Shown: positions 31,297 through 43,100 of the stretch, piece by piece
How positions within the stretch are numbered: the stretch's first letter is position 1
How the letters are laid out: each line of letters begins with the position of its first letter
NCBI RefSeq assembly: GCF_048403405.1
Contig: NZ_CP183129.1
DNA from: Escherichia coli
GTDB lineage: Bacteria > Pseudomonadota > Gammaproteobacteria > Enterobacterales > Enterobacteriaceae
Reading direction: 5' to 3' (one strand)
Length of the DNA: 64,000 nt
Notes under the pieces: model-generated
Database searches by the model: none
What the model saw: only the letters and a program-made list of their open reading frames with translations
Told to the model about the DNA's origin: nothing
Made by a program: the position numbers and the translations under genes

Positions 31297-32883
31297 TTAA
31301 TGCTCGCGGGTCTGGTGGAACTGAACGTCCGGATAACGTTCCTGCGCCAGGCGCAGGTTGACCATGCTGGTAGCGATGTAAGCGAGGTTATCGCCGCCAT
31401 CAAGCGCCAGTTGGCTTTCGTTCTTACGCTTGAACTCTTCGAATTTCTTCGCGTCCGCACATTCTACCCAGCGGGCAGTGGCAACGTTGACTGACTCATA
31501 CACTGCTTCAACGTTGTATTCGCTCTTCAGACGCGCTACCACCACATCAAACTGCAGCACACCAACCGCACCAACGATCAGATCGTTGTTGGAGATCGGA
31601 CGGAACACCTGCACTGCGCCCTCTTCGGAAAGCTGTACCAGCCCTTTAAGCAGCTGTTTTTGCTTCAGCGGATCTTTCAGGCGGATACGACGGAACAGTT
31701 CCGGCGCGAAGTTCGGAATACCGGTGAACTTCATCATCTCACCCTGGGTAAAGGTGTCGCCGATCTGAATAGTGCCGTGGTTATGCAGGCCGAGGATATC
31801 GCCCGGATACGCTTCTTCAACGTGCGAACGGTCACCCGCCATAAAGGTCAGCGCGTCGGAGATCACCACATCTTTCGCAGTACGCACCTGGCGCAGCTTC
31901 ATGCCTTTTTCATATTTACCGGACACCACACGCATAAACGCCACGCGGTCGCGGTGTTTCGGGTCCATGTTGGCCTGAATTTTAAATACGAAGCCTGTAA
32001 ATTTGTCTTCGCTCGCCTCTACGGTACGGGTATCAGTCTGACGCGGCATCGGCGCAGGTGCCCACTCCACCAGACCATCCAGCATATGATCGACGCCGAA
32101 GTTACCCAGCGCAGTACCAAAGAATACCGGAGTGATTTCGCCCGCAAGGAACAATTCTTTGTCGAACTCGTTAGACGCGCCTTTCACCAGCTCCAGTTCA
32201 TCACGCAGCTGCTGCGCCAGATCTTCACCAACCGCAGCGTCGAGATCCGGGTTATTCAGCCCTTTAACAATACGGACTTCCTGAATGGTGTGGCCTTTAC
32301 CGCTCTGATAAAGATAGGTTTCATCTTTATAAAGGTGGTAAACGCCTTTAAACAGCTTGCCGCAGCCAATCGGCCAGGTGATCGGTGCGCAGCCGATTTT
32401 CAGCTCGTTCTCAACTTCATCGAGCAGTTCCATCGGGTCGCGGATATCACGGTCAAGTTTGTTCATAAAGGTGAGGATCGGCGTATCGCGCAGACGGGTA
32501 ACTTCCATCAGCTTGCGGGTACGATCTTCAACACCTTTTGCGGCGTCGATAACCATCAGGCAGCAGTCCACCGCCGTCAGGGTACGATAGGTATCTTCCG
32601 AGAAGTCTTCGTGCCCCGGGGTGTCGAGCAGGTTAACCAGGCAATCGTGATACGGAAACTGCATCACAGACGTAGTAATGGAGATCCCACGCTGCTTTTC
32701 CATCTCCATCCAGTCCGACTTAGCGTGCTGGTTGGAACCACGGCCTTTTACTGTACCGGCGGTCTGAATGGCCTGTCCGAACAGCAGCACCTTCTCGGTG
32801 ATGGTAGTCTTACCGGCGTCTGGGTGAGAAATAATTGCAAAGGTTCTTCTTTTCGCTACCTCTGCGGCCAAAAGGCTTGTCAT
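31297..32883 (-). CDS. prfC: peptide chain release factor 3 (GTPase)
   Basis: 528 aa, G1 motif [20 protein letters not shown]; start at [15 protein letters not shown]. Confidence 0.93.
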
Positions 32884-33038
32884 AATTGTTGTCTCTTTGA
32901 TTATGTACAATCATATGTACAAAGAAAAATTCATGCCGCTGATTGTACATTTTGGAGGTATCAGAGCATAGCAGAACATGATCAGTAGGTGTATTTGTAG
33001 CCAAAGAACATTTGTACATGCAGCAATCTTTGTTCCAT

Positions 33039-33067
33039 TGACACTGTTTATTCATACAGTTAAAAAT
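33039..33067 (+). promoter_or_regulatory. sigma70-like promoter for the dinI-like gene
   Basis: TTGACA (33039-33044), 17-bp spacer, AAAAAT (33062-33067). Confidence 0.5.
33045..33060. promoter_or_regulatory. LexA box 1 (SOS box)
   Basis: CTGTTTATTCATACAG fits CTGT-N8-ACAG; lies in promoter spacer. Confidence 0.65.
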
Positions 33068-33071
33068 AACA

Positions 33072-33087
33072 CTGTATACAAACACAG
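33072..33087. promoter_or_regulatory. LexA box 2 (SOS box)
   Basis: CTGTATACAAACACAG fits CTGT-N8-ACAG; 16 bp upstream of dinI-like ATG. Confidence 0.7.
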
Positions 33088-33102
33088 TGTAGAGGGATTT
33101 TT

Positions 33103-33351
33103 ATGCGTATTGAGATCTGCATAGCCAAAGAGAAAATGACTAAAATGCCAAACGGTGCTGTGGATGCGTTAAAGGAAGAATTAACTCGACGCATCAGTAA
33201 GCGTTATGACGATGTAGAGGTGATCGTAAAAGCCACCAGCAACGATGGCCTTTCTGTTACGCGCACCGCCGATAAAGATTCAGCTAAAACTTTTGTTCAG
33301 GAAACTCTGAAAGATACCTGGGAGTCTGCTGACGAGTGGTTTGTTCACTAA
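33103..33351 (+). CDS. DinI-family protein (prophage-borne DinI homologue)
   Basis: 82 aa [31 protein letters not shown]...[11 protein letters not shown]; C-terminal WESADxWF motif as in DinI. Confidence 0.85.
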
Positions 33352-33417
33352 TTAACACGTAAAATCGGTAACGGCTGGAAATCATTCAATACTCGCACTA
33401 TCGGAAGTTCACCAGCC

Positions 33418-33460
33418 AACCGCAGCACGTTCTTGCATACGACGTGTCTGCGGTTTTTCA
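33418..33460 (+). terminator. probable intrinsic terminator after dinI-like gene
   Basis: Imperfect stem CCGCAGCACGT...ACGTGTCTGCGG followed by TTTTTC. Confidence 0.5.
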
Positions 33461-33777
33461 ACCATTCAGATACAGCACTCTCATCACATTCATTCTTCCG
33501 CATTAAAGTATATATGACCATATCACCTTAATATTTTTCTTCTTCAGATAAAAATTGTTATCTATGTATACTTTTAAACCGAATCCGTGTAGAGTCTCTA
33601 CCTAAGTTAGTTCACAGCTACCCCTTCAGTTTGCGCCATTAACTTCCTGACTTTTGCCGCTATCTGTAAGCATTCCTGTATACCTGAAACTACAGGGTTC
33701 ATCTACGAACTTTAAGAACACCCAGGATAAAAATTGTCAACTATATTATATATAACACCATACTAATTCGAGGCTAT

Positions 33778-33891
33778 ATGGACAGCATACTGATAATCAC
33801 TTCACTACTTATCATATTCAGCATTTTTAGTCATGCTCTAATAAAATTAGGGGTTGGCATATCCAATAACCCGGACAAAACCGATGTATAA
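33778..33891 (+). CDS. unlisted 37-codon ORF encoding a hydrophobic peptide (hypothetical small membrane protein)
   Basis: GAGG 4 nt upstream of ATG; [37 protein letters not shown]: one predicted TM helix plus polar tail; too short for the ORF track. Confidence 0.35.
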
Positions 33892-33959
33892 GTCAACATA
33901 TCCTGAATCAGACATACAATATTGCAATGAAAACCAATAATATTTTAAGGAATATCTTC

Positions 33960-34193
33960 ATGAAATCAAATGACACCCTAAAGTGGTTCCCCGCGCAGCT
34001 TCCTGAAGTCAGAATTATCCTGGGAGATGCTGTCGTGGAAGTGGCAAAACAGGGAAGACCTATCAATACCAGAACATTGCTTGATTACATTGAAGGAAAC
34101 ATAAAGAAAAAGTCATGGCTGGATAACAAAGAATTATTACAAACAGCGATATCAGTTCTTAAAGACAACCAAAATTTAAATGGTAAAGTGTAA
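33960..34193 (+). CDS. YdfK/YnaE-like prophage protein (so-called cold-shock-induced family; function unknown)
   Basis: 77 aa from MKSNDTLKWFPAQLPEVRIILG..., AAGGA RBS; recalled similarity to Rac/Qin ynaE/ydfK, which sit beside pin genes. Confidence 0.6.
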   Translation: MKSNDTLKWFPAQLPEVRIILGDAVVEVAKQGRPINTRTLLDYIEGNIKKKSWLDNKELLQTAISVLKDNQNLNGKV

Positions 34194-34573
34194 TAAACAC
34201 CCCCTGAAAAATAATTTTTCAATGCATTAAAAAATATCAACAACTACGTTATTCCGCAACAACCTACTTTTTTTACCATTTTTCCACTTTAACAACTTTT
34301 TGCTCCACTTTTCCAAGACCAAACAAATTGAAATCTGGCTAAAACAACATACAACACTATTATTCGTCTTTCTCGAGTCCGCCCGGAGTTCGAAAAACAA
34401 ACCGAGTTAAAGCCATTTTTCAAAAAATCGATTTTAGGTTACACCAAAATTACGGGACTGCATCCAAATTTGTTTATTTTCGAACGTATACATACAAATA
34501 TGTGCAATAATAAGCGAAATAATTTTTGGATATGCATTATGATATGTACACCAATTTCGTATAGAGTCTCACT

Positions 34574-35164
34574 ATGTCTCGAATTTTTGCTTACTGTCGG
34601 ATATCAACTCTGGATCAGACCACCGAAAATCAACGCCGGGAAATCGAAAGTGCAGGCTTTAAAATCAAACCTCAGCAAATAATCGAAGAACACATTAGCG
34701 GCTCAGCAGCAACCAGTGAGCGTCCTGGTTTTAACCGGTTGCTTGCTCGCCTGAAATGTGGTGATCAATTGATTGTGACAAAACTGGATCGCCTTGGTTG
34801 TAATGCAATGGATATCAGGAAAACAGTGGAACAACTGACCGAAACAGGTATCAGAGTGCATTGCTTAGCATTGGGGGGCATTGACCTGACCAGTCCAACA
34901 GGAAAAATGATGATGCAAGTAATTTCAGCAGTCGCTGAATTTGAACGAGACCTTTTACTTGAACGCACTCATTCCGGGATAGTAAGAGCCCGGGGCGCAG
35001 GGAAACGTTTTGGTCGACCACCTGTGTTAAATGAAGAACAGAAACAGGTGGTATTCGAACGAATTAAGTCAGGTGTAAGTATAAGTGCCATTGCCCGGGA
35101 ATTCAAAACCTCGCGGCAAACCATTTTAAGAGCCAAAGCAAAACTTCAGACACCTGACATATAA
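34574..35164 (+). CDS. pin: serine recombinase, Pin-type DNA invertase (PinR/PinQ-like)
   Basis: 196 aa; catalytic Ser region [15 protein letters not shown] motif, C-terminal HTH. Confidence 0.88.
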
Positions 35165-35391
35165 AAAATAATCTCGGTGTGAGATGCTTTACGTCTTCCA
35201 AGCCCCCTTCCTTGCCGTAAATGGAAAGATACATCTAATTATAGAATTTATATGTTTTACCCTACGGCAGTGCTGGCCATTCAATATCCTGTGCAGTTGA
35301 CGTATCAACACGGTTCAGCAACACCCGATACTTTTTCCAGGCTTCCAGCAACGGGGTTTCTTCCTCCGTTGCATATACAGCTCACCTTTTT

Positions 35392-35688
35392 TCACCCACG
35401 ATTAACCAACAGCCAGACCAGCAGACACGCCACCACCGGCACAGCAAAATCCATCAGGCTTGCCACATCCCACACGCGCGGATCAAAACCGCCCCACCAC
35501 GGCATGTTAATCCTCTTGCCATGCCCAAACATTTCAATCCAGCGATATTCCGCCTGGGTGTGTTCACGCGCAATGAAGAACGTACAACCGGCTATCGCCC
35601 CGTAAGCCCAGTTCCCGGTAAAAAGACCAACCAGTAGCTGCGCAGCCACAGCACAAAGCGCATGAAGGAAAGGTGTTATATCCATTTT
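35392..35688 (-). CDS. small 3-TM inner-membrane protein of unknown function (prophage accessory)
   Basis: MKMDITPFLHALCAVAAQLLVGLFTG...; three hydrophobic helices; between tail-fibre module and pin. Confidence 0.55.
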   Translation of the reverse strand, partial: KMDITPFLHALCAVAAQLLVGLFTGNWAYGAIAGCTFFIAREHTQAEYRWIEMFGHGKRINMPWWGGFDPRVWDVASLMDFAVPVVACLLVWLLVNRG

Positions 35689-35727
35689 CATCCTACCCAA
35701 TAAAACGGGGCGCTCGGCCCCTTGATA

Positions 35728-36768
35728 TTATTTAGACGCAAGCGCCGCCTCAATTGCAGATAATCTTTGTCTTAATTCTGCGTTTTCTTCTTCCAGTGCT
35801 GTTATTCTGTCGTCTGACTCTCTGGCTACCTGAACAAGCAAGCCAGTAACACCAGAATAATCTACTGTGTAATAACGTTCACCTTCTTCACCTTCCGATC
35901 CGCTTGCGCCGTCCTGATATTTCATTGCGGAACCTACAACTTCTGGGATTGCTTCCAGAGCTTCCTGTGCAATGACACCAGCATAGGGCATACCGTTTTC
36001 TTTAAGCGTGTATGTATAGCCGTTCATTTTACGGATGCGGTCGGTTGCATTATCGATCACCTGAATGTTGTCTTTCAGATCCCGGTCGGAATGCTGGTTA
36101 AATGCGGTGGCATGACATGCACCATTAACGCTTAACATATAGGTGTTATCGGTATTTTTTTGCGCATAGAACATATAAGCGCCACCATCAACACCGACTT
36201 CATAAACAACAGGACGGCTGGAGTTGCCCCACAATTGAGCAGTAACACCAGCATAAGCGGTTCCCTGTGTGTTTAATGTCATGGTTGACCCATGATTGGC
36301 ATATTTGATCTGTAATGTGTCGGTGTAATCAAATTTAATAAGCGCGTTACTTCCACGCTTGCTGTATGACATAAGGCAGTTACCCATTTTGAGGTATCCG
36401 CTGTCACCGGGAAAAATCATCGTACCGCCATAAAGGTTGGTAAAGTCCCAGCAAATGTTTGTCCCGTTATCGTTCAGGTTAAGGCGCGCCATTGCGTTAC
36501 CTGGACTGTCTATCCATTTTTTGAGGTATAGTTCGCAATACGCATCCTCAACACCTGCCGTCCTGTGAGTTGAGCGGAGTTTTCTCCCAAATATAGCTCC
36601 GCTAGTTGGCAATACCTGCTGATACCATGAAGCAGACCAGTCACCAACGATTTCATCTTTGCTGTCTACATATAATTTTGTTGCGTAGCTTCCTTGATCG
36701 TTTTTTAATTTGCTAACGTCGGATTTTAGCGTTTTGATGTCATCAGGAATTACTGTCGATGTAGCCAT
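35728..36768 (-). CDS. tail-fibre/tail-spike tip protein with C-terminal intramolecular chaperone (peptidase S74-like) domain
   Basis: 346 aa; C-terminus DLKDNIQVIDNATDRIRKMNGYTYTLKENGMPYAGVIAQEALEAIPEVV... typical of auto-cleaving chaperone domains of endosialidase and T5 pb1 type fibres. Confidence 0.7.
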   Translation of the reverse strand: MATSTVIPDDIKTLKSDVSKLKNDQGSYATKLYVDSKDEIVGDWSASWYQQVLPTSGAIFGRKLRSTHRTAGVEDAYCELYLKKWIDSPGNAMARLNLNDNGTNICWDFTNLYGGTMIFPGDSGYLKMGNCLMSYSKRGSNALIKFDYTDTLQIKYANHGSTMTLNTQGTAYAGVTAQLWGNSSRPVVYEVGVDGGAYMFYAQKNTDNTYMLSVNGACHATAFNQHSDRDLKDNIQVIDNATDRIRKMNGYTYTLKENGMPYAGVIAQEALEAIPEVVGSAMKYQDGASGSEGEEGERYYTVDYSGVTGLLVQVARESDDRITALEEENAELRQRLSAIEAALASK

Positions 36769-36777
36769 TTTTCTTCC

Positions 36778-37059
36778 TCACATCCAGCCACGAAGTTGAT
36801 GCTCAACAGCAACCACGTATTCATCGAATAATGACGATATTTGCGAATCATTAATGATGCGCACGTTTACAAAATATCCGTCTTCCTTAACACATACCGG
36901 TTCGCCATCTTCAGTCAGTTCTCCGGTTTCTTTGTACACGTTACCTATCACGTCAATAAGAATATCATCCTGCATCAACTCGTCATCATAATAGCCAATG
37001 CTCTCCATAAAGGCCGAAAAGTCGGCCCTGTCGGGAAATTTGAGTGTTAAATCTTTCAT
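36778..37059 (-). CDS. hypothetical 93-aa acidic protein between fibre genes (possible fibre assembly/adaptor)
   Basis: ORF with 1-nt overlap (ATGA) with stf stop; no recognised motif. Confidence 0.45.
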   Translation of the reverse strand: MKDLTLKFPDRADFSAFMESIGYYDDELMQDDILIDVIGNVYKETGELTEDGEPVCVKEDGYFVNVRIINDSQISSLFDEYVVAVEHQLRGWM

Positions 37060-39434
37060 TAGATTGACTCCCCCACCTGAGCATCAGTCAATGCCTTGTG
37101 CCATATTCTGAAATTCCTTACATGACCAAATAAATGACGTAACCCGGCTGTAGTCTGGCCTCCAATACGGATAATTGCGGTGTTCTGAATACAGGACCAT
37201 GTGGTTTTTGTTTCGCTGGATATACGCCCGTTACTTACTGCGCATGTAGACTGATCAGACTTTACACGCATCCCCATAACCATTTTTTCAAGTGATGCAT
37301 TTTCGTTTATCCGTCTGTTAGACCCACCAATATCGCAATAAGGAAATCCGTCGTAATCTGCTGAAGAACCGAAGCCAAGAATAATAGCCGCTCCGGTTTG
37401 ATGACCGCCGGTATCAAAAACACGCGGTGCTGCATTTGGCGTTTTATACCAGTTCTTATGTACCTCACAAAGAACCGTAAAAGGAAGATTATAAAGATTA
37501 TTCTTAATGGGAACTGTGACTATATCGCTTGCGCGGGTCGCCGCCGTCGTTCCTGATATAATAAAAGATGATACACAAGGCCCATTTTCTACTTGTGGGG
37601 TGGCCAGATAAATATAGTCACCAGATACGGTTGCCCCGCCCTGCTTAGGAGAATACTGTATCTGAGAACCTATTTTTAACTCCCCATCAATTGCCTGAAT
37701 TGTTGCCTCTGCAAAAATCCATCCGATAACTTCGTCCTTTCTGACTCTCGCTGTAATCCTTGAGGCAGCGCCGCCTGTCATATTAATTTCAAGCGTTTGT
37801 GTATCAATATACACATCACCAAGAAAAGTTGTTGCGCTACCGTCATATTTATCAAATCGGATACGCAACCTTACCTGCAGTTCTGTTTTAAAACGACATG
37901 AGGTTGTCACGTATTTATTATCGCCTGAGACATCAACTGACTTTGTTGCAGCAATTGATGCCATATTAATGGCTGAGGTTTGCCCAATCAGAGAATCGTT
38001 ACAGACAAACTTTCCATAGGTAAAACCAAAACTATCCGTCCCGGTTTCGGGAACATCCATATTTGACGATCGCCCCCAACTGGCAGGGCTTTCCGAATTG
38101 AGCATGTAGTTCGTTCTTTGCCCCTCAATAAGCAGGCCATCACGTTCAAACCGTGGCTCGTCAATGGCAGCCTCTGTCAGCACACCAGATTTATTAATAT
38201 AGGTTGCTTTCGATGCGCGTTTAAACTTAACAACCTTGTCGCCAGGCATCGTTATTTCATCATCACCAATAACAATCTTTTTATATGACGGCGAAAAGCC
38301 CGTAATCATATCCAGCGAATCGTTAAATGGTATCCACACATCAGGCAGCGGCTGTAAGACATATTTATACGGCTCCGCAGCCTGGCTTGCGTACTCTCTG
38401 GCTGCATCTTCGCTTGCTTTAGCTGCCGTCTGGCTTGCTGCCGATGCTTTCGCTGAGTTCGCAGCCGCTGTTTCGCTCACCTTTGCGTTGGTTTCACTGG
38501 TTTTTGCTGCTTTTTGACTGTTAGCTGATGCAGTGGCAGAAGCAGCAGCCGCGCTTGCAGAACCAGCTGCAGCACTCTCGCTTTCGGCTGCTGCATCCTG
38601 ACTGCTTTTCGCCGCAGTTTCGCTGGCTTTGGCATTCGTTTCGCTGGTCTTCGCTGCCGTCTGGCTGGACTTTGCGTTAGTTTCACTCGTCTTCGCTGCT
38701 TTCTGACTGTTAGCCGCAGCAGTTGCTGATCCAGCAGCTGAAGTCGCAGAACCGGCTGCCGCGCTCTCGCTTTCGGCTGCTGCATCCTGACTGCTTTTCG
38801 CCGCAGTTTCACTGGCTTTGGCATTCGTTTCGCTGGTTTTCGCTGCCGTCTGGCTGGACTTTGCGTTGGTTTCGCTCGTCTTTGCGGCTGTCTCGCTATT
38901 TTTCGCGTTGGTTTCTGATTTTTTGGCTGCTGTCGCGGAGTTTTCTGATGCAGTCTGTGAGGTCGCTGCCGCCTGTGCACTATTAGCTGCATTCGTTTCT
39001 GAGGTTTTCGCCGCGTTCTTCGATGATGCCGCTGCAGTTTCGGATTTCTTTGCCGCCGCTGCGCTCTGAGAGGCGGCTTCGGCGTTGCGTGCCGCTTCTT
39101 CCACCATTTCCTCAAAACGACGCAATGCCTCCGGCATGACATCATCTTCCGTCATGGCACCGAGAAAATCATTCAGCGTACCTGGTCTGGAACCTTCATA
39201 GACGGTAATGGTTCCGGCATGTGAAGGCGGAAAACCTTCAACAAGCAGGATAACGCTGTACTGGCCATACTCAACATCCATGCTGTAACGCCCGGCTTCA
39301 TCCGGATTTTCAGAGGCCACCGTGTTCACCAGTACCGTGGTGCTGTTACGCTTTGCCTTCAGTTGAATAGTGCAGTTCTGTATTGGTTTTCCCGCACCAT
39401 CTTTCAGCACACCTGAGATTTTTACTGCTGCCAT
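37059..39434 (-). CDS. stf: side tail fibre protein Stf (lambda-type N-terminus, divergent C-terminal receptor-binding part)
   Basis: N-terminus MAAVKISGVLKDGAGKPIQNCTIQLKAKRNSTTV... matches lambda Stf; Ala/Ser/Thr/Lys-rich repeats; C-terminal part resembles a lectin/LamG-like domain. Confidence 0.85.
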   Translation of the reverse strand: MAAVKISGVLKDGAGKPIQNCTIQLKAKRNSTTVLVNTVASENPDEAGRYSMDVEYGQYSVILLVEGFPPSHAGTITVYEGSRPGTLNDFLGAMTEDDVMPEALRRFEEMVEEAARNAEAASQSAAAAKKSETAAASSKNAAKTSETNAANSAQAAATSQTASENSATAAKKSETNAKNSETAAKTSETNAKSSQTAAKTSETNAKASETAAKSSQDAAAESESAAAGSATSAAGSATAAANSQKAAKTSETNAKSSQTAAKTSETNAKASETAAKSSQDAAAESESAAAGSASAAAASATASANSQKAAKTSETNAKVSETAAANSAKASAASQTAAKASEDAAREYASQAAEPYKYVLQPLPDVWIPFNDSLDMITGFSPSYKKIVIGDDEITMPGDKVVKFKRASKATYINKSGVLTEAAIDEPRFERDGLLIEGQRTNYMLNSESPASWGRSSNMDVPETGTDSFGFTYGKFVCNDSLIGQTSAINMASIAATKSVDVSGDNKYVTTSCRFKTELQVRLRIRFDKYDGSATTFLGDVYIDTQTLEINMTGGAASRITARVRKDEVIGWIFAEATIQAIDGELKIGSQIQYSPKQGGATVSGDYIYLATPQVENGPCVSSFIISGTTAATRASDIVTVPIKNNLYNLPFTVLCEVHKNWYKTPNAAPRVFDTGGHQTGAAIILGFGSSADYDGFPYCDIGGSNRRINENASLEKMVMGMRVKSDQSTCAVSNGRISSETKTTWSCIQNTAIIRIGGQTTAGLRHLFGHVRNFRIWHKALTDAQVGESI
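38560..38890. repeat. tandem duplication (about 186-bp unit) inside stf coding region
   Basis: Near-identical DNA blocks ...CTCGCTTTCGGCTGCTGCATCCTGACTGCTTTTCGCCGCAGTTTC... at about 38562-38700 and 38748-38890; protein repeat SETNAKSSQTAAKTSETNAKASETAAKSSQDAAAESESAAAGSA occurs twice. Confidence 0.8.
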
Positions 39435-39498
39435 ATCCACTCCACAAAAAAGCCCGCCTGAACCGGCGGGCTGTCATAACACTGTGTTACCTGGCTAA

Positions 39499-40098
39499 TC
39501 AGAATTTATAACCGACACCCACGATGAAACCGTCAGTGCGCCAGTCACCACTGCCGGAACCTTCATAAGCAAGGTCAATGGCCACGGATTCGGTCGGGTT
39601 AAACTGCACGCCAGCCCCCCACGCCAGAGACGTGTTGCTGTGGCGACCGTCATCACTTCCGGTCAGCACATCGTGCGTTTTCCCCTTGTTGTCAGTTACG
39701 CGGAGATAATCCCCGGAGAAGGTCGACACACGGCTGTAAGCCATACCCGCCATCGCATAAGCACTGAACCATTCATTCACGCGTACAGATGGCCCCGCCA
39801 TCATGCTGAACCAGCGGTTACGCACGGAATCTTCATGCCAGCGGGTATCGCTGTAATGCGTTTTTTGCTCATCTTTGGCATTGGCATAACTGAATGACGT
39901 CACCAGCCCCAGCGTGTCCGTAAATTCATAACGGTATTTCACGTTAATGCCCTTCAGGTCATCACTGCCTGGCATATCAGTATGGGTCTGAAGATACCCG
40001 GCGCTTAGTGTGGACTGATGCTCTGCTGCGCTCGCTGGCGTACCAGCGGCAACCAGCCAGACTACTGCGGACAGAATAACAGCACATAATTTACGCAT
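39499..40098 (-). CDS. lom: Lom outer-membrane protein (Ail/Lom family)
   Basis: 199 aa, signal peptide, beta-barrel ending ...GFIVGVGYKF; position between J and stf as in lambda. Confidence 0.88.
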   Translation of the reverse strand: MRKLCAVILSAVVWLVAAGTPASAAEHQSTLSAGYLQTHTDMPGSDDLKGINVKYRYEFTDTLGLVTSFSYANAKDEQKTHYSDTRWHEDSVRNRWFSMMAGPSVRVNEWFSAYAMAGMAYSRVSTFSGDYLRVTDNKGKTHDVLTGSDDGRHSNTSLAWGAGVQFNPTESVAIDLAYEGSGSGDWRTDGFIVGVGYKF

Positions 40099-40165
40099 AA
40101 TTACCTCTCGCTTTTCTGCAATAAAAAAGGCGTCATTTCTGACGCCCGTATTGGGGTTATAAAAT

Positions 40166-43100
40166 TCAGCTGATACTGATGCCTGCGGTGGCTTTCTTCA
40201 TCACCACAACCAGCAAATCGCTGATACTTGCTGTGGGATACCAGTCATTTACCAGCCATGCTGACACCGAAAACTCCAGCGTCATGTGACCGTGACCGGC
40301 AGGCATATCAATAACGCCACTGTAAATCAGCGTATTATCCAGCGCGGTACGGTTATAAATTTCAGCACCGTTTTTCCGCACTATCAGACGGCATGAGGAG
40401 TAAATATCAGTATGCTCTCTCTCATGTTTAGCGCCGCTGAATGCCACCGCCGGAATAACAATCTGCCGGTCAAACGGCTGATCGTCATAAATCCTGACGG
40501 TAATGGTCCCTGATGGCCACCGTTCCGGTGCACGGGAGTCCCGGGGGAAAGCTTTGCCCACTGTTTTAACGAGATCGCCTTCAATCTGGTTCGCGGACAG
40601 TTTTCCCAGAACCCGGCAGTTCTCGTTAATCGTGACGTTGTTGAGCGTCCCGGAGTTCGCATTCACGTTACCGCTGATATCGGCATTTTTCGCCGTCAGC
40701 CGCCCGTCCGGTGTCAGGGAAAATGCCGGAGGATTACCGCCGCTGGTAATGGTGGGAGCCGTCAGATATTTCAGGAACACTTCATTCATAAATATCTGAT
40801 CGCCCTGACCAACAAACATCGGCTTTGTGTTGCCATTCGCAGGATTAACCATCGCAATCCTGTCCGCCGCCAGCAGCACCTGACTCTGCATACCGTCAGG
40901 AGTATTCTCAATACCGGCACCAATACCCGCGATATAAAGGCGTCCGTCCTGCATCTGCTGCAGCTTCACAGCCCACATGCTGTTCAGGTTATTATTTGTA
41001 TCAACCTGAACCTTCTGTATCTGCTGAATTACCGCACTCTGGTCTTCCAGTTTATTATTGACGGTCTGCGTGATTTCATTGCTGACATCCGTAATGGACG
41101 TCCTGATTTCAGCCAGGTCAGGCGCAAGCTGACCGTTATCAATCTGCGTCCACAGCTCCTGAGCCAGATGGCTTTTCCCTATCTCGCCTTTGAAAAAATC
41201 CAGATAGCCGGATGCATCATCACTCGGCTGGCCAACAGCCTCCACAAATGCCGATTTGCCAACGGTGTTCACACTGCGGATGTAAAAATAATAATCATGG
41301 CCCGGTTTGATATTGATACTGGTGGCTATCCAGTACAGCGCCGTGCCAAGATAGCGGGCTGTGGTTTCAACCTGCCTGATATCGGTAATCCGCGTTTCCG
41401 AGAACCAGAACTCAAACTGTACCGTCGGATCATAAACCGCAAGATGCGGCGTGGCAGTTATCTGAAAATAGCCCGGCGTCAGCTCAATCCGCGACGGCGC
41501 TGCCGGTGCGGCAATCCGGAACGATACCGATGCCGGATCGCCCTGCTGTCCCCACGCATTTACCGCCCGGACCGTCAGCGTGTAACGCCCCAGCGCCAGT
41601 TGCCTGAAGCGGTATGTGGTTTCCGTCGTCCTGGCCGTGCTGACCAGCCGCTCACTGCCGTCGTCCGCTGCCACGGTCAGGCGAAGCAGGAAGCTCACGC
41701 CCTTCACCACCTTCGGCGTGTCCCAGCGGGCCAGTACCTGATACTCCCCGCTGTCTGCGGTGACTTCGGCAGTCAGGTGCTGCACCGCTGGCGGCGTGAC
41801 ACCATTCACCGTGCCGCTCTGGTCACCGTCAAAGTGCGCCCCGTTATCCACGATGGCTTCTTTCTCCGGTACATGCTGCACGGCGGTGATGGCATACGTG
41901 CCATCGTCGTTCTCACGGATACTCACACAGCGGAACAGGCGCTGGCGCAGCGTCGGCAGCTTCAGCCCCCATACGCTGTATTCAGCAACACTGTCAGGAA
42001 CACGGCTCACTTTTACCTTCACGCCGTCGGTGACGGACTGAACCTCCACGCTGACCGGATTGCCACTTCCGTCAACCAGGCTTATCAGCGTGGTACCGGA
42101 GGATGGCAGCGTGATTTCACGGTCGAGCGTCAGCGTCCGGGTCTGGCTGTTCACCGCCAGTACACGACCACCGGTGCTGATACCGGCATAGTCATCATCA
42201 CAGATTTCAATAACATCGCCCGGTACATGGCGAAGCCCTTCTGCGCCGACGCTGAAATCCACGGTCTGCGTTTCCAGCAGTTCCGTTTTAATCAGCCACA
42301 GCCCGGCGCGGTGTGCCTGCCCCCGGCTGGTACAGCCAAAGGCATCCATCTTCGTGACGTTACGACCGTAACGGGCAATGGCCTGCGTGTCCTCCACAAG
42401 CTCTGTCGCCGTCTCCCAGCCGTTGTTCGGGTCAATCCAGTTCACCTCAACGGCATTATGGCGGTCCTTCAGGGCGCTGAAGCTGTAGCGGAACGGCGCG
42501 CCATCATCCGGCATCACCACATTACTGCGGTTATAGGTCCACACCTTATCCGACGGTCGGTCCTGCACGAATGTCAGCGTCTGCCCGTTCCATACCGGCA
42601 TACAGCGCATCGCCGAGCAGAAATCACTGAGCACATCCCACGCCTTGCGCTGTGTGGCCAGGTACGCATTACAGGTGATGCGCGGCTCCGTGCCGCCAAA
42701 ACCATCCGGCACCGACTGGTCGCAATACTGGCTGATGACATACAGCGCCCATTTATCCACATCTGCCGCACCAAGACGTTTCCCCATGCCGTAGCGCGGA
42801 TGGGTCAGCATATCCCACAGACACCAGGCCATGTTGTTGCTGTATGCTGGCTTAAACGTTCCGTCCCAGATACCGCTGTATTGCCGCGTCTGCGGGTTAT
42901 AGTTCGACGGCACCTGCAGAATGCGCCCGCGAAGATGATAATTACGGCTCACCTGCTGGCTGCCGAACTGCTCCGAATCCACCTGCACGCCGACCAGTGC
43001 CGTGTTCGGGTAGCACTGTTTCACATCGATGATTTCGGTGTATGACGACCAGAGCGTTTTGTTCTGCAGCTGGTCTGTGGTGCTGTCCGGCGTCATTCTG

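Follow-up and report, generated by a model that had tools for sequence, protein, structure and literature searches.

A probable mosaic of known units, with one uncharacterized membrane protein, at the att-proximal end of a lambdoid prophage in Escherichia coli

The stretch of Escherichia coli DNA analyzed here (64,000 nucleotides of contig NZ_CP183129.1, assembly GCF_048403405.1; hereafter the window) carries a lambdoid prophage, and between the tail fiber genes of this prophage and the gene prfC lies a short region, at positions 33039-35700, that is the subject of this analysis. It contains five small units: a dinI-like gene with an SOS promoter, a micro open reading frame (ORF) of the YnaM/YnfT family, a ydfK gene, a gene for a Pin-type serine recombinase and a gene for a three-helix membrane protein. 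An initial annotation, made from the DNA letters, had described these five units and singled out their combination as an unusual one that might hold an undescribed accessory or defense function. Gene families, the RefSeq annotation and matches to K-12 confirm all five where it had placed them (Table 1). The region as a whole is very probably a mosaic of independent, known units and not one system. It is already known and widely distributed, its genes are common and already annotated, three of them are nearly identical to K-12 genes, and the membrane protein is its sole uncharacterized part. As to how such a mosaic would be built, dinI would form a monocistronic, LexA-repressed unit; ynaM-ydfK-pin would represent the Rac/Qin cassette, present twice in K-12, with a recombinase that has no nearby target; the tfa stub would mark an old recombination joint; and the membrane-protein gene would close a fiber module made of orf93, the S74 fiber gene and itself.

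On the host side, the minus-strand gene prfC occupies 31297-32883. K-12 homology reaches as far as 32863, 21 nucleotides inside this gene, and similarity to the attP region of phage 2H10 begins at about 32822, from which it follows that a lambdoid prophage is integrated in the 5' end of prfC. On the phage side, the tail genes J, lom, stf-N (37059-39434), orf93 and the S74 fiber gene are all located on the minus strand. Since the region falls between the last tail gene and att, it is placed where lambda has its b region. In all likelihood it is the equivalent of that region in a lambdoid prophage of the mEp460/Rac kind, at the end next to att. The location given by the initial annotation, between the tail fibers and prfC on the att side, is therefore confirmed by the end of K-12 homology inside prfC.

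Table 1. Coordinates of the features of the region and its borders in the window.
Feature	Position	Strand	Basis or remark
Probable att core	32822..32863	.	sequence of phage attP that also stands in host prfC, at about codons 8-21
dinI SOS promoter	33038..33087	+	-35 TTGACA at 33038-33043, -10 at about 33061-33067, two LexA boxes
DinI-like protein, 82 residues	33103..33351	+	NF007893, phrog_189; RefSeq: DinI-like family protein
Intrinsic terminator of dinI	~33418..33460	+	GC-rich hairpin then UUUUU; RNA fold z-score -3.4
YnaM/YnfT-family small hydrophobic protein, 37 residues	33778..33891	+	NF041477; K-12 YnaM/YnfT match
YdfK/YnaE cold-shock protein, 77 residues	33960..34193	+	RefSeq (Prokaryotic Genome Annotation Pipeline, PGAP) ydfK; phrog_2718
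PinR/PinQ-type serine recombinase, 196 residues	34574..35164	+	phrog_125 (DNA invertase), E 7e-69; K-12 match
tfa vestige, last 36 codons of tfaR/tfaQ	35262..35372	-	RefSeq pseudogene; translation is the TfaQ/TfaR C-terminus
Three-helix membrane protein, 97 residues (UniProt Ybl63; phrog_1443)	35392..35685	-	terminal gene of the tail-fiber module
Terminator-like GC hairpin between the fiber gene and the membrane-protein gene	35707..35721	-	sequence
Distal tail-fiber protein, 346 residues, C-terminal Peptidase_S74 intramolecular chaperone domain	35728..36768	-	PF13884, E 1.5e-13; phrog_4563

Comparison with the two K-12 prophages accounts for most of the region. Window positions 33335-35373 are 90-91% identical to the ends of Qin and Rac, so that the resemblance of the parts to these prophage ends, which had been pointed out beforehand, turns out to be that of one and the same cassette. 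Gene order and orientation in Rac (ynaM-ynaE-pinR / tfaR-stfR) and Qin (ynfT-ydfK-pinQ / tfaQ-stfQ) are as here, with pin convergent with tfa. Several differences set the window apart. Contrary to the K-12 prophages, it has an intact dinI gene with its SOS promoter, whereas Qin retains a degenerate trace of the dinI 3' end and Rac has none. The tfa gene is cut to 36 codons, and a 61-bp insertion (34196-34256), AT-rich and with no obvious feature, stands right after the ydfK stop codon. Finally, the stf-tfa genes of Rac and Qin are replaced by a different fiber module and the membrane-protein gene. The Qin alignment begins within the final 16 nucleotides of dinI. From this trace, and from the dinI terminator that both Rac and Qin have kept, it follows that dinI was attached to the cassette in an ancestor and was lost from the cryptic K-12 copies.

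The distribution of the region was evaluated in 5,426 complete E. coli genomes. In 524 of these genomes at least 80% of the whole 2.75 kb is covered in one place; the joint between pin, the tfa stub and the membrane-protein gene occurs in 458, and some part of the region in 5,409. RefSeq annotation of identical genomes names the genes of all units. Phage PhiR63_1 (PV340573), in which 100% of the query is matched at 98.2% identity, has the same genes down to the fiber module. Given these frequencies and the same layout in a phage, the combination can no longer be called unusual. Other phages carry the parts in different assortments. Phage 2H10 (NC_049950) has dinI-ydfK-pin-tfa beside attP and int, but differs in that the full stf-tfa is kept and the membrane-protein gene is missing. 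The matches to HannyBb and Tritos start at about 33335 and thus correspond to the cassette without dinI. Conversely, mEp460 has the same dinI and promoter, annotated there, directly between int and stf and without ynaM-ydfK-pin. Inducible wild phages hence also carry the much-copied ynaM-ydfK-pin prophage end of K-12, and do so with dinI intact and under SOS control, which in itself matters little.

The dinI product matches the NCBIfam DinI model NF007893 over residues 1-81, the acidic C-terminal helix included (E 3e-20), and phrog_189 (E 4e-31). As its NF007893 score of 72.5 bits lies below the equivalog cut-off of 111, the gene is a prophage dinI-like gene and not the chromosomal dinI. Both LexA boxes upstream of it have the form CTGT-N8-ACAG: the first (33044-33059) occupies the spacer between a perfect TTGACA and an A/T-rich -10 element, and the second (33072-33087) lies over the start region. 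This motif occurs at three sites in the 64 kb, compared to 0.69 expected by chance, and two of the three are the ones directly upstream of dinI, 28 bp apart. The pair of LexA boxes that had been claimed for this gene is thus real, lying in and after a near-consensus promoter, and a box overlapping the promoter assigns dinI to the LexA regulon by sequence. Judged from its elements, the promoter would have the usual anatomy of a LexA-repressed one. The hairpin and UUUUU stretch downstream, conserved in K-12 Rac and Qin, end the unit, and dinI is therefore monocistronic. Upon DNA damage, cleavage of LexA would lead to expression of dinI, whose product, by the function of the DinI family, would be expected to bind RecA filaments and modulate the SOS response.

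A prophage dinI homolog likewise comes first behind a LexA box in the dinI-antirepressor-irsA operons of the Salmonella Gifsy prophages (PMC3121763). Contrary to these operons, dinI in the window is followed by a terminator, and neither an antirepressor nor an irsA ORF stands behind it; also, the Gifsy dinI is located after the replication genes, whereas here it stands at the att end. In the interval 33352-33777, the largest plus-strand ORFs encode 32-33 residues and none is of the Gifsy antirepressor type. Owing to the terminator and to the lack of any plus-strand ORF above 33 residues before 33778, a Gifsy-type dinI-antirepressor operon was ruled out. An antisense ORF of 57 residues (33348-33521), annotated in PhiR63_1, was also rejected; it has no family match, contains stops in Rac and Qin, and is judged to be spurious.

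The recombinase is identical to K-12 PinR at all 196 residues and to PinQ at 194 of 196, including the catalytic serine in the RIST motif and the C-terminal helix-turn-helix. The e14 inverted repeat, TTGGTTTGGGAGAAGG, is absent from the 64-kb window at up to three mismatches and likewise from four related loci, those of Rac, Qin, 2H10 and PhiR63_1; as a positive control, the same search recovers the two e14 copies of K-12. A 26-bp consensus of the Din family scores in the window no better than in shuffled sequence, and the inverted repeats found within 32900-41000 resemble chance matches. No alternative C-terminal exons of a fiber gene occur in the opposite orientation, the tfa stub being all that is present. 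The initial annotation had described an invertase without alternative fiber exons, which holds in that neither a local crossover site nor exons were found, but has to be amended for one fiber-gene vestige, the 36-codon tfa remnant. Since pin is also without crossover sites in Rac, Qin and 2H10, the orphan pin is a conserved state of the cassette and not the result of a recent loss.

The sole defense link of the region comes from this recombinase and is already published. PinQ is reported to invert the 1,797-bp P segment of e14 in trans, which leads to StfE2 and blocks T2 adsorption (PMC12529663, Kirigo et al. 2025, Nucleic Acids Research). In the same report, PinR (99% identical) is treated as equivalent to PinQ, the recombinases PinQ, PinR and PinE are described as inverting the same e14 segment, and the phages 2H10, mEp460_ev081 and Tritos are named as carriers (PMC12529663). 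In the present host, pin could similarly flip an e14-type P segment located elsewhere, giving a chimeric fiber protein that blocks adsorption of T2-like phages. The full identity to PinR, the distance of two residues from PinQ, the shared activity reported for the three recombinases and the e14 repeats recovered in K-12 by the positive control all speak for such a defense, but its target lies neither in the window nor in any of the four related loci, and the published claim stems from a single research group. When the 5,426 genomes are considered, moreover, the K-12-type P segment is covered to at least 80% in 284, many of those listed being laboratory strains; partial relatives of the segment occur in about half of the genomes. 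We thus regard this defense acting in trans as possible but unlikely in this host. If the 2025 report holds, a recombinase identical to PinR on mobile, functional phages could flip e14-type fiber segments in new hosts.

A different reading is that the locus is an invertible fiber switch like Mu G or e14 P that decayed recently, losing its alternative exons and leaving pin orphaned. The membership of Pin in the invertase family and the tfa stub next to it agree with this idea. At the e14 PinE/P segment and the Mu Gin/G segment, an invertase-family serine recombinase is likewise found next to tail-fiber genes. PinQ and PinR are even reported to be active on e14 sites, yet PinQ is just 38% identical to PinE (PMC12529663). 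The arrangement is not the same, however: in e14 the invertible segment is just upstream of pinE, whereas here pin is convergent with tfa, and compared to both switches the locus is without inverted crossover sites or alternative fiber C-termini. Rac, Qin and 2H10 all have a complete stf-tfa pair convergent with pin, again without inverted crossover sites, and the tfa stub also accompanies the membrane-protein gene in prophages without pin. Recent decay of a switch is thus improbable.

The micro-ORF scores 60 bits against NF041477 (cut-off 35) and shares 35 of 37 residues with K-12 YnaM/YnfT. Short, and with a polar tail after its single hydrophobic helix, the product has the outline of a type I toxin such as Hok, Ldr or TisB, and the initial annotation had listed it as a candidate toxin-like peptide. 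Its membership in the YnaM/YnfT family counts against a toxin, as does the behavior of YnaM itself, which has been verified as expressed in K-12 by chromosomal tagging and accumulates to comparatively high levels in growing cells (PMC6001520; bioRxiv 10.1101/511675); accumulation of the tagged protein argues against a toxin that needs repression. No Rfam antitoxin RNA was detected at E <=1 in a scan of 32800-36000, whose two matches, a partial IS009 over the tfa stub and a weak CssrB (E 0.05), are not meaningful, and the putative leader of ynaM-ydfK folds no better than shuffled sequence (z-score 0.01), without special RNA structure. With nothing here that suggests a toxin in a verified, accumulating K-12 small protein, a type I toxin is very improbable and the claim is not supported.

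Downstream of ynaM, the YdfK protein shares 75 of 77 residues with K-12 YdfK, matches phrog_2718 at E 1e-46 and has no Pfam family match; its gene stands between ynaM and pin as in K-12, and an ORF of 88 residues starting at 33927 is a longer alternative start of the same gene. Regarding regulation, a cluster of predicted Fur sites has been described at ydfK and ynaE (PMC2189734), and data from systematic evolution of ligands by exponential enrichment (SELEX) in K-12 place RpoD promoters upstream of ydfK/ynaE and pinQ/pinR, with H-NS binding at some spacers (PMC3946193). Two repeats were observed in the spacers of the window. The first, a direct repeat GATAAAAATTGT(T/C)A(T/A)CTAT at 33547-33565 and 33726-33744, 179 bp apart and upstream of ynaM, is Fur-box-like. 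The second, a direct repeat of about 24 nucleotides ending in GT(G/A)TAGAGTCTC (33575-33598 and 34547-34570), is conserved in Rac and Qin; one copy is upstream of ynaM and the other ends 3 nucleotides before the pin ATG. It could represent a shared promoter or regulatory element, and if TAGAGT is taken as the -10 element, the pin mRNA would be nearly leaderless.

A single SOS-triggered module made up of all five units and serving an accessory or anti-phage function, in which LexA derepression would turn on the toxin-like peptide, regulator, recombinase and membrane effector at once, is so improbable that we set it aside. In its favor, the units lie side by side and are AT-rich (GC content is 33-41% from 32800 to 34600 and 50-52% in the membrane-protein gene), the LexA boxes are genuine and a Pin-type recombinase has a published defense link (PMC12529663). 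Against it, a terminator directly follows dinI, the membrane-protein gene is on the opposite strand and part of the fiber module, the units are separate in other phages and strains, in K-12 the trio occurs with neither dinI nor the membrane protein, and the PADLOC-DB v2 defense models give 0 matches for all 8 encoded proteins at E <=0.01. The suspicion of an undescribed defense function, for which no PADLOC model was matched, is therefore not supported. The initial annotation had itself named the outcome that would speak against it, genes that are individually common and unlinked prophage morons; this describes the region for the most part, except that ynaM-ydfK-pin is a conserved, linked trio.

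Several observations weigh against a mosaic of fully independent units. The genes ynaM, ydfK and pin were found together in every locus examined, and from this constancy the trio may have a joint function. Furthermore, dinI is linked to the cassette in about 10% of the genomes, and ancestrally in Qin. The promoters other than that of dinI are consensus matches or come from the K-12 SELEX data (PMC3946193).

The membrane protein, which belongs to a family of 585 homologs, is predicted by AlphaFold2 to form three helices with a mean predicted local distance difference test (pLDDT) value of 91.8; a 102-residue version of its ORF extends to 35700. Its central loop, AREHTQAEYRWI..FG.GKR.NMPWWGGFD, is invariant in 32 of 32 aligned sequences from several genera, ranging from Escherichia to Aeromonas and Comamonas, and it is the helices that vary; E41, H42 and D68 are among the invariant residues. 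No Pfam domain and no PDB sequence relative were found for the protein, a Foldseek search of AFDB50 returned only its own family and weak matches to DUF2238 and DUF2784, and a literature search for "Ybl63" found no paper.

When the genomic neighborhoods of the family are compared, a link to tail fibers becomes apparent. The Ybl63 gene of P2/HP1-like prophages in Aeromonas media and Leclercia begins directly where an S74 tail-fiber gene ends, and an ad hoc hidden Markov model detected an S74-like domain in the upstream ORF in 64 of 78 E. coli-type viral contigs. Across the prophages examined, of both siphovirus and myovirus type and from several proteobacterial groups, the gene usually comes immediately after the distal tail-fiber gene or its chaperone. 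The domains of the upstream neighbor are diverse, however: among 16 species-level loci, S74 is found in two, DUF4376 in three and LamG in two, and some copies in Aeromonas and sphingomonads are plain chromosomal genes. A specific tie of the gene to S74 fibers, which was considered, had to be softened in view of the two S74 neighbors in 16 species loci and of the chromosomal copies. A more general function linked to fibers, either as an inner-membrane factor that blocks superinfection or alters receptors, or as a helper of the fiber, is put forward tentatively and remains rather doubtful. Within this range our best guess, made with low confidence, would be an inner-membrane factor tied to fiber or receptor function, for instance in superinfection exclusion.

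Small phage membrane proteins that block superinfection are encoded beside receptor-binding genes in several phages, as for T5 Llp, phi80/N15 Cor, HK97 gp15 and T4 Imm. By analogy, the Ybl63 protein appears likewise small and membrane-embedded, and its gene would share the position of such exclusion genes, directly after the fiber gene and behind a terminator-like hairpin. No relation in sequence or fold to Llp, Cor, gp15 or Imm was found. The family also includes chromosomal copies outside phages, and, unlike in exclusion proteins that are specific for a receptor, its central loop is invariant across genera. Being widespread, unstudied and linked to tail fibers, the family offers a cheap candidate for a superinfection-exclusion screen.

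The tfa stub, between pin and the membrane-protein gene, is the point where homology to Rac and Qin ends (BLAST end-point 35373). In other strains, what comes after the block of orf93, S74 fiber gene, membrane-protein gene and tfa stub is either a gene for a diguanylate cyclase or sitABCD. Because the block thus precedes other genes elsewhere, and not pin, the stub is an old recombination joint that belongs to the fiber module. The partial Rfam IS009 match noted above covers the stub (35296-35394, minus strand) with 65.9 bits, compared to a gathering score of 117, and E 5e-14; the IS009 model probably describes the 3' region of tfa in K-12 prophages, and not a true small RNA at this place.

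Some further observations concern the fiber module and the att end. In IMG/VR loci, the flanks of the module are conserved, with orf93 (36778-37059) on one side and the membrane-protein gene on the other, and the S74 fiber gene between them is swapped; it occurs as two main types, of about 346 and about 233 residues, and is absent in some loci. The module looks like a host-range cassette. Within the stf-N gene, positions 38400-39020 contain nested tandem repeats with a period of 21/42 bp and a 189-bp duplication whose copies are 85% identical. The encoded repeats are rich in SETNAK/TAAK, and variation in fiber length is likely to arise from them.

At the other end, the first codons and the promoter of prfC have been replaced by the prophage, attP carrying a prfC-like 5' end (32822-32883). 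The new N-terminus of prfC is therefore derived from the phage, which supplies the new 5' end to the right of the att core. Since the promoter is replaced, release factor 3 (RF3) in lysogens must rely for its expression on phage-derived sequence that lies divergent to the dinI SOS promoter; within 32900-33100, no clear promoter for prfC was found on the minus strand. Between the att core and the dinI promoter, at 32900-33025, there are several TGTACA repeats (ATGTACAATCATATGTACAAAG, GATTGTACATTTTGG and ATTTGTACATGCAG). These repeats are also present in the attP region of 2H10 and are probably arm-type binding sites of Int.

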